In this document: positions 3,633-29,159 of the stretch, one piece after another
How the letters are laid out: every line of letters starts with the position of its first letter
How positions within the stretch are numbered: the first letter of the stretch is position 1
Sequence record: PQ480333.1
Direction: 5' to 3' (one strand)
Origin: Escherichia phage NRG-P0074
DNA: 64,000 nt
Translations under genes and position numbers: made by a program
The notes under the pieces: model-generated
Database searches by the model: none
What the model was told of the DNA's origin: nothing
Seen by the model: the letters and a program-made list of their open reading frames with translations, nothing else

Positions 3633-3670
3633 GTTTACACAATTATAGGACTATGTTACAGTAGTCCTAT
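3633..3670 (+). promoter_or_regulatory. early promoter with ATAGGACTA/TAGTCCTAT palindrome
   Basis: GTTTAC 3633-3638; ATAGGACTATGTTACAGTAGTCCTAT 3645-3670; RBS GAGGAG follows. Confidence 0.55.
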
Positions 3671-5857: not shown

Positions 5858-5887
5858 TAATAAATACCTCCTATAAACGTGGGAGGT
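5858..5887 (+). promoter_or_regulatory. late-promoter-like boxes plus hairpin sequestering the e RBS
   Basis: AATAAATAC (5860-5868) and TATAAACG (5872-5879) resemble T4 late TATAAATA; ACCTCC 5866-5871 pairs with GGAGGT 5882-5887 (the SD of e). Confidence 0.45.
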
Positions 5888-5890
5888 ATT

Positions 5891-6658: not shown

Positions 6659-6713
6659 GTTTACTTCCTCCAAGGACTTTGATACTATACATTCATCAAC
6701 TACTTGGAGGAAA
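6659..6713 (+). promoter_or_regulatory. early promoter flanked by 10-bp inverted repeat TTCCTCCAAG/CTTGGAGGAA that includes the denV RBS
   Basis: GTTTAC 6659-6664; -10-like GATACTATA; right arm 6704-6713 contains GGAGG for ATG 6716. Confidence 0.5.
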
Positions 6714-6715
6714 TT

Positions 6716-7129
6716 ATGACTCGTATCAATTTAACACTTGTTTCTGAACTGTCCGACCAACATCTTATGGCTGAGTATCGTGAATTACCACGCGTATTTG
6801 GTGCAGTCCGTAAACATGTTCAAAACGGTAAACGTGTAAAGGATTTTAAAATCTCTCCAACATTTATCTTAGGCACAGGTCACGTAACATTCTTTTACGA
6901 CAAACTCGAATTTTTACGTTTACGTCAAATCGAGCTAATCGCTGAATGTTTGAAACGTGGTTTCAAAATCAAGGACACGACAGTCCAGGATATTTCCGAC
7001 ATCCCTGCCGAATTTCGTAATAATTATGTCCCGTCCGAAGCGTCCATTGCGATAAGTCAAGCACGCTTAGATGAAAAAATTGCTCAACGTCCGACTTGGT
7101 ACAAATACTATGGTAAATCAATTTACTAA
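6716..7129 (+). CDS. denV: endonuclease V (pyrimidine dimer DNA glycosylase/AP lyase)
   Basis: [35 protein letters not shown]... matches T4 DenV as I recall it. Confidence 0.95.
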
Positions 7130-8129: not shown

Positions 8130-8302
8130 TTCTTGCCTAATAAAGGGAAACGCAACCTCTCCTCATGAACGTCGAGTCCTCTGAGTGATGTACCTTTTCC
8201 AACCTGTAATAAGGTCGAGCGCAATGCGGTAATGGGTTTACATAGCGAGTCGAAGGACCTAACATGTGCCACGGAATGGCCCCAACCTAAAAGAGAAACT
8301 AA

Positions 8303-8842: not shown

Positions 8843-9147
8843 TGACCACTATTGAAGTTTTTGAGTATTGTTATAACAGCCCAGTATGCAATAAAAGGGC
8901 TCTTGTAGAAAATTACGAGATTTACCATTTTAAACCTAAACGATATCGTTTGACTAAAGGTCCGTTCGCAGGGCAGCAGGTTCTTTGTACTGCTCCTAAT
9001 GCACGGTTGATGACTAGTATTCCGCATTTCAAAATGGAATTTATTGATGGGCCATTTAAGGGATTAATCACTCAAAGTTTAATGGCGTTTAATTCCGACC
9101 CATTTTTGATTAAAGAAAAATCTTGGATAAATTTATTTTCTAATTGA
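8839..9147 (+). CDS. hypothetical protein
   Basis: ATGA-coupled ORF, 102 aa. Confidence 0.5.
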   Translation: MMTTIEVFEYCYNSPVCNKRALVENYEIYHFKPKRYRLTKGPFAGQQVLCTAPNARLMTSIPHFKMEFIDGPFKGLITQSLMAFNSDPFLIKEKSWINLFSN

Positions 9148-9153
9148 GGTTAT

Positions 9154-9516
9154 ATGAAAGCATATCAAATTCTTGAAGGTGCACATAAAGGCACTATTTA
9201 TTTTGAAGACGGTACTCAAGCCCGGATTATTGTCTCTAAGACTTTTAAAGAAGACACTATTGTAGACCCGGAAATTTTCTACGGTTTGCATGCCCGTGAA
9301 ATTGAAATTGAACATCAACCTAAAGTTAAAATTGAAGGTGGTCAACATCTGAACGTTAACGTTCTGCGTCGCGAAACTCTGGAAGATGCAGTTAAACATC
9401 CGGAAAAATATCCGCAGCTGACCATCCGTGTATCTGGTTATGCAGTTCGCTTTAACTCTCTGACTCCGGAACAGCAGCGCGACGTTATCGCTCGTACCTT
9501 TACTGAGAGTCTATAA
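9154..9516 (+). CDS. autonomous glycyl radical cofactor (GrcA/YfiD-like; T4 Y06I-like)
   Basis: C-terminal glycyl-radical domain with [25 protein letters not shown] motif. Confidence 0.85.
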
Positions 9517-9740
9517 TGGCTAAATTGATTATAGAAGGGTCTGAAGATGTTTTAAAATGTTTTGCCGCCTGGTTTAGTTGCTCAGGCGAGCAATCATTCA
9601 TTGAAGCATTTAGAATGGGTGATATTACTGGAAACTATCCGACAACTGATATCACTGTACATGGATATGGTATTAATGAGCCTATCCAATTGGTCGAATA
9701 TGACCTTGCCACTGATGAGGAAATTCCTTATGTCGATTGA
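9516..9740 (+). CDS. hypothetical protein
   Basis: 74 aa ORF coupled to upstream gene. Confidence 0.45.
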   Translation: MAKLIIEGSEDVLKCFAAWFSCSGEQSFIEAFRMGDITGNYPTTDITVHGYGINEPIQLVEYDLATDEEIPYVD

Positions 9741-9996
9741 AGACATCAAAGGCTACAAGCCACATACCGACGATAAAATCAGTAAAGTGAACGCTATTAA
9801 AGATGCAGAAGTCCGTCTTGGATTGATGTTTGATGCTCTGATTGAAGAAGCATATATCTTGAAAGAAAATGAAACAGAGCAACAAACCAAAGAAGATATG
9901 GATGCAGTGCAGGCTCTTAAGTATGCTAAGCAACATCTAAAAGAAGCCAGCATGTGGGCGTGTCGTGCAGTATTTCGACCTGAGGAAAAATACTAA
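9730..9996 (+). CDS. hypothetical protein
   Basis: ATG 9730 overlapping upstream stop; the listed 9562 ORF is probably an N-terminal over-extension. Confidence 0.45.
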   Translation: MSIEDIKGYKPHTDDKISKVNAIKDAEVRLGLMFDALIEEAYILKENETEQQTKEDMDAVQALKYAKQHLKEASMWACRAVFRPEEKY

Positions 9997-10211
9997 TGGC
10001 TTCTACTATTACTGGGTTATTGGACTTCCAAGAAAAGGTCAACAAAATTTGTAGTGAATACTTAAAGTATCTTGAAGAAGACCTTGAAGATTGTAAGGAA
10101 GAAGGCGAAGAAGACTATGCTGACCAGCGTCGCCGCCAAATCGAAGAGATGAGGCATTTCGCCAATATGGTATCTAAAGAATCTTGGGCTTTAACTCCGT
10201 TTTATCAATAA
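9996..10211 (+). CDS. hypothetical acidic protein
   Basis: 71 aa coupled ORF. Confidence 0.45.
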   Translation: MASTITGLLDFQEKVNKICSEYLKYLEEDLEDCKEEGEEDYADQRRRQIEEMRHFANMVSKESWALTPFYQ

Positions 10212-10215
10212 AGTA

Positions 10216-10265
10216 GTTTACTTCTCCTCTAGTTGTGTTACTATAGACCTGTCAACTAGAGGAGA
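10216..10265 (+). promoter_or_regulatory. early promoter inside perfect 14-bp inverted repeat TTCTCCTCTAGTTG/CAACTAGAGGAGAA; right arm holds the regB RBS
   Basis: GTTTAC 10216-10221; -10-like TACTATAG in the 16-nt loop; arms 10222-10235 and 10252-10265. Confidence 0.55.
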
Positions 10266-10272
10266 AATCAAA

Positions 10273-10731
10273 ATGACTATCAATTCGGAAGTTTTTATCC
10301 GCCGTAATAAACTCCGTCGAATCTTTGAAACGGAGTTCCGCAAAATAAATGCCAGTATAAAAGACGCTGCAAAGTCTCTTGGACTACCAGGCTTTCATAT
10401 CAAGTATTCTCAACATCTCTTAGATCGTGCTATCCAGAGAGAAATAGATGAGAATTACGTTTTTGAATTATTTCGTAAAGTAAAAAATCATGTTAAAGAA
10501 GTTGCAGAATTTTTATCAATGCCGGCACGTCCAGATGTTGATGAAGATTTTGTCGAAGGTGTCGAATATCGCCCAGGACGTTTAGAAATAACTGATGGAA
10601 ATCTTTGGTTAGGACTTACAGTTTGTCGCGAAAATCCAGCATTCAAAATGAAGACTCTTCAATGCAGAATGGCTATTATTAACAGTAAACGACTACCAGG
10701 AAAAGCTTCTAAAGCAGTGATTAAAATCTAG
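10273..10731 (+). CDS. regB: site-specific endoribonuclease RegB
   Basis: MTINSEVFIRRNKLRR...LKYSQHLLDRAIQREIDE...RLPGKASKAVIK matches T4 RegB as I recall it. Confidence 0.93.
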   Translation: MTINSEVFIRRNKLRRIFETEFRKINASIKDAAKSLGLPGFHIKYSQHLLDRAIQREIDENYVFELFRKVKNHVKEVAEFLSMPARPDVDEDFVEGVEYRPGRLEITDGNLWLGLTVCRENPAFKMKTLQCRMAIINSKRLPGKASKAVIKI

Positions 10732-10739
10732 AGGTAAAC

Positions 10740-11282
10740 ATGAGAAAAGCACTACTCGCTGGTCTATTTGCTCTTTCATTATCAGCACATAGCTCCGAGC
10801 ATACTTTTAGTAATGTCCAACTCGATAACTTGAATTATGCTTATCAGTTTGGGGAACAGTTTTCTAAGGACGGAAAATTTAAAACGCATGAAAATATGCA
10901 TAAGAAAGGACTTGGATACATAATGGCCGCAATACTATGGCAGGAATCATCTGCCGGTATTAATCTTAAAGATAAGAAAGGTCACCATGCGTATGGAATG
11001 TTCCAAAATTATCTACCAACAATGAGGGCAAGAATTAACCAGCTTGGTTATAATATGACTGATGCCCAAATTAAGAAAATGCTATCTAAGCGGTCTAATT
11101 CAACCAGATGGGCTTATATCGAATTTTCTTATTGGTTAAATATACATAACGGGGATATAAGAAAAGCTATATCCTCATATAATGCGGGATGGAAGACAAG
11201 TGCTGGAAGTAAATATGCTTCTGAAGTCCTAGAAAAGGCTAATTACCTTAAATCAAATAAACTACTGGAAATAAAAGAATGA
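10740..11282 (+). CDS. secreted soluble lytic transglycosylase (SLT-domain) protein
   Basis: Signal peptide MRKALLAGLFALSLSA; SLT motifs WQESS, GMFQ, SYNAGW. Confidence 0.6.
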   Translation: MRKALLAGLFALSLSAHSSEHTFSNVQLDNLNYAYQFGEQFSKDGKFKTHENMHKKGLGYIMAAILWQESSAGINLKDKKGHHAYGMFQNYLPTMRARINQLGYNMTDAQIKKMLSKRSNSTRWAYIEFSYWLNIHNGDIRKAISSYNAGWKTSAGSKYASEVLEKANYLKSNKLLEIKE

Positions 11283-11626
11283 CCAAAATGTTGGCTTTAA
11301 TAGTTGGCTTGGTTTCATTTAACGCTCTTGCTAATACAACATATACTGATGTAACGGAGTATACAAACAGAACGGCGTCTGATTATTGTGGTAAAAGTCA
11401 AGAGTGTAAAGTAGATTTTTCACAAAAATTGTTATATGCGTATAAAGACGGAGAAAAAGATGGGGCGTCTAGTAGGTTCAAGGCGTCTACCTTAATTAAA
11501 AGATACTATAAAAAATGGCAAATATTAGAATGCTCTGTGGCGGAACCTAAAGATAAGGCAGCATGCAATTCTATGGTGGACCGTCTAGTTGACTCTTATA
11601 CTAGAGGACTTGCAGCAAGTGATTAA
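11279..11626 (+). CDS. hypothetical secreted protein
   Basis: 115 aa with N-terminal signal peptide MTKMLALIVGLVSFNALA. Confidence 0.5.
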   Translation: MTKMLALIVGLVSFNALANTTYTDVTEYTNRTASDYCGKSQECKVDFSQKLLYAYKDGEKDGASSRFKASTLIKRYYKKWQILECSVAEPKDKAACNSMVDRLVDSYTRGLAASD

Positions 11627-12083
11627 AAACTATATCAAGGGCGATATTGTCGCCCTGTTTTCTAAAGGTAATAATATTGCTCATGGGTGTAATTGTTTTC
11701 ATACAATGGGCGCTGGTGTGGCAGGACAATTAGCAAAGGCTTATCCAAAAATTCTGGAAGCCGATAAACTTCAAACCGAATTCGGAGACAAGTCTAAACT
11801 CGGGACTTATTCGGTTTATGAAAAATATTTTAAGACCCATAAAGCTTATTGCTTTAATCTTTATACACAGTTTGAGCCGGGACCTAATTTTGAGTACTCT
11901 GCTTTAATGAATTGTATAATAGAATTAAATGAATTCGGAAAGAATAAGATAATAAAGCCTGTAATTTATATGCCTAGAATTGGTGCAGGTATTGGTGGTG
12001 GAAACTGGGATATCATCGAAGAGATTTTAGATACGTATTCCACTAAACTAGAAATTGTGATTGTTGATTGGGAACCTAAATGA
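11619..12083 (+). CDS. macro-domain-like protein
   Basis: GNNIAHGCNCFHTMGAGVAGQLA and PRIGAGIGGGNW resemble macrodomain Gly-rich loops; GTG start with GAGGA 10 nt upstream (alternative TTG at 11589). Confidence 0.5.
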   Translation: MIKNYIKGDIVALFSKGNNIAHGCNCFHTMGAGVAGQLAKAYPKILEADKLQTEFGDKSKLGTYSVYEKYFKTHKAYCFNLYTQFEPGPNFEYSALMNCIIELNEFGKNKIIKPVIYMPRIGAGIGGGNWDIIEEILDTYSTKLEIVIVDWEPK

Positions 12084-13442: not shown

Positions 13443-13509
13443 GGCATCTATCAGTTTACTTCTCCTCAGGTTGTGTTATAGTAAACCTTACTTACTAGAG
13501 GAGAACGTT

Positions 13510-13903: not shown

Positions 13904-13943
13904 TTTACAACTTGGTAGGACTATGTTATAGTAGTCCTACCAA
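13903..13943 (+). promoter_or_regulatory. early promoter with 12-bp perfect palindrome TTGGTAGGACTA/TAGTCCTACCAA
   Basis: GTTTAC 13903-13908; loop TGTTATAG holds the -10. Confidence 0.55.
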
Positions 13944-24459: not shown

Positions 24460-24489
24460 TAAATACCCTTATCTATTTAAGGTAAGGGT
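24458..24489 (+). promoter_or_regulatory. late-promoter-like box plus hairpin upstream of gene 49
   Basis: AATAAATA 24458-24465; ACCCTTA 24465-24471 pairs with TAAGGGT 24483-24489 just upstream of ATG 24495. Confidence 0.45.
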
Positions 24490-29125: not shown

Positions 29126-29159
29126 ACGATAGGAAGACATGTTATTATCTTCCTATCGT
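29126..29159 (+). promoter_or_regulatory. early promoter with 12-bp perfect palindrome ACGATAGGAAGA/TCTTCCTATCGT
   Basis: -35-like ATGTAC 29119-29124; loop holds TGTTATTA -10. Confidence 0.5.

Follow-up and report, generated by a model that had tools for sequence, protein, structure and literature searches.

In the 64,000 nucleotides (nt) of Escherichia phage NRG-P0074 that we analyzed (sequence record PQ480333.1; this whole stretch is referred to as the window), the gene of the GGAG-specific endoribonuclease RegB is preceded by a perfect 14-base-pair (bp) inverted repeat whose arms enclose the −10 element of an early promoter and whose right arm contains the Shine–Dalgarno (SD) sequence of the gene. 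Why should a promoter and a ribosome-binding site share one hairpin? The original prediction for this locus held that transcripts reading through from upstream would fold and hide the ribosome-binding site, whereas transcripts started at the embedded promoter would lack the left arm and be translatable. In our analysis every sequence-level prediction of this model holds, namely the placement of the arms, the folding, the lack of a terminator and a conserved compensatory pairing. We consider it probable that a hairpin built from the promoter spacer hides the SD in read-through RNA, leaves RNA from the own promoter translatable and in this way ties expression to the gene's own early promoter.

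Anatomy of three promoter–hairpin cassettes

Positions 9000–12000 of the window are 98–99% identical to phages of the RB69 group (Mosigvirus, Tevenvirinae), placing the phage among the RB69-like T4-type phages. The plus strand of the window, on which all features given here are located, corresponds to the RB69 minus strand and to the direction of early transcription. Based on the RB69 annotation and on PHROGs, the genes with start codons at 10273 and 6716 are regB and denV, the names already used in the original prediction.

At regB, the −35 hexamer GTTTAC (10216–10221) fits the T4/PST early consensus and is followed by the left arm TTCTCCTCTAGTTG (10222–10235), an anti-SD sequence filling the spacer between the −35 and −10 elements. 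The −10 element TACTAT (10239–10244), with TGT ahead of it, lies inside the hairpin loop. From the promoter geometry, transcription is predicted to start at 10251, the 7th nt after the −10 element and 2 nt before the right arm CAACTAGAGGAGAA (10253–10266), which contains the SD motif GGAG (10261–10264); the coding sequence for 152 amino acids (aa) follows at 10273–10731. A second cassette (53667–53717) carries GTTTAC at 53667–53672, TATTAT at 53690–53695 and GGAG at 53712–53715, and its arms TTCTCCAGTAGTTG (53673–53686) and CAACTACTGGAGAA (53704–53717) precede a 105-aa open reading frame (ORF; phrog_2110, 53722–54039) in the variable region downstream of gene 41. The third cassette (6659–6712), with GTTTAC at 6659–6664, TACTAT at 6683–6688 and the arms TTCCTCCAAG (6665–6674) and CTTGGAGGAA (6703–6712), stands ahead of denV, encoding the 137-aa endonuclease V (6716–7129). 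The repeats of 14 bp at regB and the 105-aa ORF and of 10 bp at denV named in the original prediction are real, with the correction that the regB repeat ends at 10266 and not at 10265, and the denV repeat at 6712 and not at 6713. Direct sequence coordinates also bear out that the arms flank the −10 element, that the right arm holds the GGAG, and that the denV repeat shares the order of promoter and arms with the two longer ones.

All three promoters fit the early consensus GTTTAC-N17-TAYWAT, with the −10 element in the loop and the left arm beginning right after the −35 hexamer; the published T4/PST consensus is TTTACW-N17-TAYWAT (Comeau et al. 2014, PMC4122927). A generic sigma-70 scan misses the regB promoter (8/12 matches), because T4 early promoters use GTTTAC/TAYWAT. 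The 7th base after the −10 element, the usual start position, falls 2 nt ahead of the right arm, and the predicted own transcripts have a leader of 20–22 nt starting with (G/A)UCAACUA...GGAG. The right arm therefore reads as two parts, the conserved initial transcribed sequence CAACTA and the SD. The spacer is the only part of the cassette with a free sequence, and it is shaped to complement the leader and the SD. In the two 14-bp copies, the stems differ at a pair of neighbouring positions (TC versus AG), for which the other arm compensates with GA versus CT, and the regB cassette (10216–10275) and that of the 105-aa ORF (53667–53724) are paralogous, being 85% identical over ~60 nt. A search of Rfam gave no match at the gathering threshold anywhere in the window, and the 105-aa protein had no Pfam hit. 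Relatives of this protein with 55–100% identity are encoded on at least 50 viral contigs, where their position in the genome varies.

Folding, pairing partners and conservation

The window contains two perfect inverted repeats with arms of 14 nt or longer and loops of 3–40 nt, and none of 30 dinucleotide shuffles contains one; for arms of at least 10 and the same loops, 13 were observed compared to a shuffled mean of 3.6. The isolated hairpins of regB, the 105-aa ORF and denV have predicted energies of −20.7, −20.2 and −16.9 kcal/mol (z of −5.1, −6.0 and −5.1), and read-through RNA over the full cassettes, in the same order, reaches −23.2, −24.7 and −18.5 kcal/mol (z of −3.3, −5.1 and −2.7). 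In the latter the probability of an unpaired SD is ~0 at all three genes, bearing out at the level of fold prediction the claim that read-through RNA would fold and hide the ribosome-binding site. RNA beginning at the predicted start, which lies 3' of the left arm as the model of an embedded promoter had implied, yields −2.5, −1.0 and −2.1 kcal/mol, no better than shuffles, and its SD is predicted to be mostly open.

To compare own with foreign pairing partners, 20 predicted early promoters with a following gene were taken, and each pre-start segment was paired against each leader. The own pairing ranks first of 20 at regB (−23.4), the 105-aa ORF (−22.9), denV (−20.2) and a ModA/ModB-like gene starting at 60393 (−18.9), and is intermediate at the promoters at 13454 (−15.3), 53233 (−12.8) and 27992 (−10.8), the off-diagonal mean being −7.8 with a standard deviation of 3.4. 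A permutation test on the diagonal sum over the 20 promoters gave p = 3.5e-4. Approximately a quarter to a third of the predicted early promoters, in this window and in T4, have this layout.

We further gathered, from T4 and from collections of viral and metagenome sequences, the loci encoding RegB, DenV and the 105-aa protein, and called a site masked if the minimum free energy fold paired at least three of the four SD bases with sequence 5' of the predicted start. By this measure, masking is found in all 17 distinct variants of the regB upstream region, with a mean ΔG of −20.5 for read-through compared to −0.8 for own-start RNA, and in 27 of the 31 denV variants, T4 included. Among the regB and denV variants, the probability of an unpaired SD is ~0 in read-through RNA and 0.3–0.9 in own-start RNA. 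The stem itself differs between lineages: at regB it is TTCTCCTCTAGTTG/CAACTAGAGGAGAA in the RB69 group, TTTTCCTCTTGACTG/CAGTTAAGAGGAGAA with two G·U pairs in T4, and TTTCTCCTCTTTATG/CATAAAGAGGAGAAA, TCTCCTGTAAGT/ACTTACAGGAGA or ATCCTCTCTG/CAGAGAGGAT in further lineages, and in one lineage the −10 region pairs with the AUG instead. The denV variants use both geometries, either an anti-SD spacer or a segment from the −10 element to the start that pairs with SD and AUG; in either case the transcription start lies 3' of the whole 5' arm. The four unmasked denV variants (L108, L110, L114 and L116, on contigs of 345–378 kb) have a strong G+C-rich terminator-like hairpin upstream and a TTGAC-type promoter, so the masking design appears to be limited to the T-even-like group. 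For the 105-aa ORF, the long stem is confined to the close relatives of the window, and other lineages have a TCTCC/GGAGA match of 5–6 nt or none.

In the ~57 kb of T4 examined, regB, denV, modB and motB.2 have the layout, among 13 promoter–gene pairs found; the T4 regB hairpin comprises 15 bp, two of them G·U, and the T4 denV hairpin 10 bp. Cassettes resemble those of other genes more closely than they resemble those of the orthologous gene in other phages, as illustrated by a regB cassette (locus L078, 336–394) that is 93% identical to the T4 denV cassette (L085), so that cassettes evidently move or convert between genes. The spacer of T4 motB.2 (AF158101, ATG at 8161) is likewise an anti-SD sequence (TTCCTCGGTTAG ... 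CTACTGAGGA; −17.4 kcal/mol for the own pairing); this gene carries one of only two GGAU sites reported to be cut by RegB (PMC1702504).

Covariation was assessed on 26 distinct cassettes of the spacer type (regB, denV, the 105-aa ORF and three other window genes), using 13-nt arms anchored on the SD and joined by a GAAA linker in an ungapped constructed alignment of related sequences. Standard pairs fill 79.3% of the cells, compared to 64.4% with partners shuffled among sequences (0 of 500 shuffles reach the observed value) and 43–50% in slid registers. The covariation score is 0.423, as against 0.171 for shuffled partners and at most 0.115 for slid registers. Changes on both sides are found at 13 of 13 pairs, in 60 cells compared to 22.8 in the control, and four or five types of standard pair occur at each of the arm positions 7–12, which lie outside the CTCC/GGAG core. 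In a plain MAFFT alignment of nine regB leaders the arms fell out of register, so that RNAalifold recovered no more than 7 pairs; this result was not used as evidence.

Proposed action of the hairpin and competing explanations

On the reading that we prefer, the cassette of ~60 bp would act through the 17–18-bp spacer of its sigma-70 early promoter, which complements the leader and SD of the driven gene. RNA entering from upstream would carry both arms and fold co-transcriptionally into a 10–14-bp hairpin burying the SD, so that on this RNA ribosomes could not initiate at regB, at denV or at the 105-aa ORF. RNA from the embedded promoter would begin ~2 nt before the right arm, without the left arm and with an open leader, and would be translated. 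Protein synthesis would then be tied to the firing of the own early promoter, as a burst in the first minutes of infection, and the expression of the three genes would be insulated from upstream transcription. We infer, for this phage, the start site, the existence and amount of read-through RNA and the block of translation.

Transcripts of a 71-aa ORF (9996–10211), a homologue of RB69ORF117c whose stop codon (10209–10211) lies 10 nt 5' of the left arm, would be the read-through RNAs into regB. The proposed source at the 105-aa ORF is a 124-aa ORF (53292–53666) with an own early promoter at ~53233 and a stop codon 6 nt 5' of the left arm. Taken together, the same-strand upstream genes end 10, 6 and 7 nt ahead of the left arms of regB, the 105-aa ORF and denV, respectively, and a terminator scan predicted no intrinsic terminator between the upstream same-strand early promoters and the three cassettes. 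With regard to ribosome footprint and helicase reach, a gap of 6–10 nt between stop codon and stem should keep terminating ribosomes from opening the stem.

The early promoter of T4 regB is functional and shut off at 2–3 min, RegB cleaves the SD of its own message, in vivo cleavage at the RB69 regB SD has been reported, and RegB production 'must be tightly regulated' (PMC3014915). The hairpin would close the remaining route, translation of regB from transcripts that enter from upstream. If the hairpins work as predicted, they would control regB at a further level, in cis, as the third beside the shut-off of its promoter and the self-cleavage by RegB, and would explain how toxic or dose-sensitive proteins such as the RegB nuclease, endonuclease V and a ModB-type ADP-ribosylase are made in a short burst despite continued read-through transcription. 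Autoregulation by RegB uses the same GGAG in the same leader towards the same end, a tight limitation of RegB (PMC3014915), but acts in trans on open promoter-proximal RNA, whereas the hairpin would work in cis, on read-through RNA, which it would if anything shelter from the enzyme.

Several observations speak against this reading or lessen its support. The transcription start sites of this phage are consensus predictions. A scan for MotA boxes found no strong middle promoter directly upstream of regB, and ribosomes terminating 6–10 nt upstream might loosen the base of the stem. Predicted SD pairing exceeds 0.8 in 18 of 92 window genes without an early promoter in this AT-rich genome; since SD pairing is common even without promoters, only stable hairpins are informative, and stability and own-versus-cross pairing were used instead. 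In the covariation set the register of the arms was taken from each sequence's own fold, which leans the figures towards pairing. G·U pairs are equally frequent on both strands (35/600 sense, 36/556 antisense), and the mean advantage of the sense fold is just 1.9 kcal/mol (sense better in 26 of 44 sequences; Wilcoxon p = 0.015, for related sequences). Perfect palindromes fold alike on either strand and so cannot alone tell a function in RNA from one in DNA. There are sense-specific lineages, with −23.1 compared to −14.0 for T4 regB and differences of 9–13 kcal/mol for several denV variants. The stronger arguments for an RNA role in translation are that a segment upstream of the start buries the ribosome site throughout lineages, genes and both geometries, that the arms covary instead of being conserved, that the loops are long, and that gene e and apparently also gene 49, both treated below, use the same device.

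The paired GGAG may in addition escape RegB cleavage; it should resist the enzyme, because structure protects against RegB. A wider proposal, in which early-promoter spacers serve as general mobile insulators, so that any gene with such a cassette is translated from its own immediate-early transcript alone, and the hairpin also shields the internal GGAG of delayed-early and middle read-through RNA from RegB, is one that we put forward tentatively and hold to be rather doubtful. If true, it could help to explain why RegB destroys early transcripts but not middle transcripts with the same motif.

A role as an RNA shield or stabiliser in the first place is unlikely in our view. The hairpin would then protect the read-through GGAG from RegB and from follow-up cuts by RNase E/G, or serve as a 3' stability hairpin of the upstream message, and, equally unlikely, polycistronic delayed-early RNA would survive by it while short promoter-proximal RNA is destroyed. 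The right arms do carry GGAG, and the site GGAGAACAAAA at the 105-aa ORF matches the RegB/S1 consensus GGAGRAYARAA (PMC3014915) in 11/11 positions; by eye, regB matches in 8/11 and denV poorly. Secondary structure is known to protect against RegB, most middle transcripts resist it (PMC3014915, PMC1702504), and shielding is compatible with a block of translation and could act alongside it. Among the early genes of the window, however, the presence of a hairpin and the match to the RegB consensus are not associated. The GGAG of T4 denV is RegB-resistant in vivo through its 3' context and not through structure (PMC1702504), yet the denV hairpin is kept in 27 of 31 variants, and the second geometry also buries the AUG, which points to translation.

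We regard it as quite unlikely that the hairpins are terminators or attenuators that reduce upstream transcription, as proposed for the PeSL cassettes of RB49/phi1, PST and nt-1. PeSL elements combine an early promoter with a stem-loop, sometimes between −35 and −10 or over the −10 element, and for one RB49 stem-loop a reduction of lacZ expression downstream was shown, in the manner of a strong terminator (PMC2839356). The cassettes analyzed here also recur before different genes, and the window contains classic −10-overlapping stem-loops as well. Against termination, no U-tract follows the stems (GGAGAAAUCAAAAUG, GGAGAACAAAAUG), their tails being A-rich; the terminator scan does not call the three hairpins; and their loops of 17–28 nt are unlike those of intrinsic terminators. 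The feature that is constant across lineages, burial of SD or AUG, is not needed for termination. Untranslated read-through RNA may be prone to Rho termination and would then look like PeSL 'attenuation', a Rho-dependent effect of blocked translation that would blur the distinction between the two explanations.

An element acting in the DNA, either an operator palindrome for early-promoter shut-off or a recombination substrate whose overlap with the ribosome site is incidental, appears very unlikely. Perfect palindromes fold equally on either strand, how early promoters are shut off has been called incompletely understood (PMC3014915), PeSLs were proposed as recombination sites, and movement of cassettes between genes does occur. 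The arms, however, differ between sites and lineages outside the CTCC/GGAG core and stay complementary, which is the signature of a fold and not of a sequence-specific binding site. Stems of T4 regB, several denV variants and modB use G·U pairs and are better on the sense strand by 9–13 kcal/mol, long loops disfavour cruciforms, and homologous recombination needs repeat identity, not dyad symmetry. A chance palindrome or by-product of base composition, for which the AT-rich genome and its 31 inverted repeats with arms of at least 9 could be cited, is refuted by the shuffles, which gave no 14-bp repeat compared to two with identical layout in the window, by conservation and by covarying pairing in independent lineages.

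Should the cassettes be translational insulators, the reading of some PeSL stem-loops would have to be revised from terminators to such insulators, with a bearing on how gene cassettes can be shuffled between phages without a change of expression. For synthetic biology, they would offer a compact design in which the promoter spacer keeps read-through RNA from being translated. Promoter function leaves the sequence of the spacer largely unconstrained, and simple spacer mutations can test the idea directly.

Known hairpins and further sites in the window

The principle of such hairpins has long been known from T4, and the observation itself is probably in part not new. New, as far as we have checked, are how widely the layout extends over early genes and lineages, the role proposed for the promoter spacer as the arm that represses, and the possibility that read-through RNA thereby resists RegB. 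In the literature searched we found no description of early-promoter spacers as anti-SD arms, key older T4 papers being outside its reach. Valerie et al. reportedly noted in 1986 that the sequences before ipIII, ipII, denV and orf61.9 (now regB) can form stem-loops; if so, the bare T4 observation is old, though the reviews consulted do not treat these stem-loops as translational control.

The start-site hairpins of homing-endonuclease genes are not known to be built from early-promoter spacers or to be cassette-like. They resemble the cassettes in that the ribosome site is sequestered and a potentially harmful nuclease kept low (mobE of Aeh1, segB and I-TevII/III of T4-type phages; PMC3014915). 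In T4, hairpins that sequester the start site and have an internal promoter are known for e, soc, 49 and I-TevI (Uzan and Miller 2010, PMC3014915), and that review, whose cases are late or intron genes only, does not list regB, denV and modB among them. The structure at gene e lowers lysozyme synthesis from long early transcripts ~100-fold, and late-promoter RNA without the 5' arm is translated (PMC3014915). As in these four genes, a stable helix at the cassettes buries the SD, and a predicted internal promoter starts RNA without the 5' arm. Those four genes, however, have a late internal promoter (gp55, TATAAATA) that delays synthesis, whereas here it is a sigma-70 early promoter from which early-only synthesis is expected, and the anti-SD arm is the −35/−10 spacer itself or the −10 region. 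The late promoter TATAAATA was not found in the loops of the three cassettes. With internal promoters that are early and not late, the cassettes form an early-promoter variant and not strict members of the e/soc/49/I-TevI type.

The window offers two comparators of the classic kind. The hairpin AATACCTCC/GGAGGTATT (5863–5890; 9–12 bp, −16.3 kcal/mol) buries the SD of the lysozyme gene e, which starts at ATG 5891; this is the classic control of T4 gene e, found here in an RB69-like phage. The hairpins of regB, the 105-aa ORF and denV are at least as stable as this one. The second comparator, ACCCTTATC/GGTAAGGGT (24465–24489; −12.9 kcal/mol), buries the SD of a 157-aa ORF (ATG 24495) that is putatively gene 49 (endonuclease VII), by length and map position relative to RB69 only. 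Late-promoter-like motifs accompany both: TATAA(A/G)TA in and ahead of the left arm at gene e, and AATAAATA just upstream of the 24465–24489 hairpin, which would match the known gene 49 arrangement.

Two other promoters of the window show related hairpins. A weaker member of the spacer type (13454–13505) has its −35 element at 13454–13459, and TTCTCCTC (13460–13467) pairs with GAGGAGAA (13498–13505) ahead of a 59-aa DUF7438 ORF (ATG 13510). The second geometry is seen at 60337–60398, where the −10 region GTGTTATGATAGGC (60356–60369) pairs with GGTCTATCATGACA (60385–60398), including the start codon of the downstream ModA/ModB-like ADP-ribosylase gene (ATG 60393). In T4 modB (ATG at T4 13130), the same pairing of −10 region and start codon is found, with one G·U pair.

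The cassettes resemble PeSL in being compact intergenic units of early promoter, stem-loop, SD and ATG that are repeated and exchanged between genes (PMC2839356, PMC4122927). They differ in that the five PeSL subclasses have the stem-loop at or upstream of the start and the SD as a separate 3' module, whereas here the stem spans the −10 element and the start, and its 3' arm is the ribosome site. PeSL stem-loops were moreover interpreted as terminators or attenuators and recombination sites, while the present cassettes are without terminator features.

A second stem-loop family with the core TAGGACTA-TGTTAT-TAGTCCTA was observed at 2348–2377, 3645–3670 and 13912–13943, with related members at 29126–29159 and near 1995, 18750 and 54990. 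The stem-loops with this core overlap the −10 element and leave the ribosome site free, and the family is like the PeSL stem-loops of RB49/phi1, which lie between −35 and −10 or over the −10 element (Arbiol et al. 2010, PMC2839356). Finally, a hairpin AAAGGAGAC/GTCTCCTTT at 53207–53228 lies between gene 41 and the early promoter at 53233, immediately next to both. It corresponds to a PeSL of the type with a stem-loop just upstream of the promoter, and four relatives (L033–L036) carry a version with a UUCG loop.

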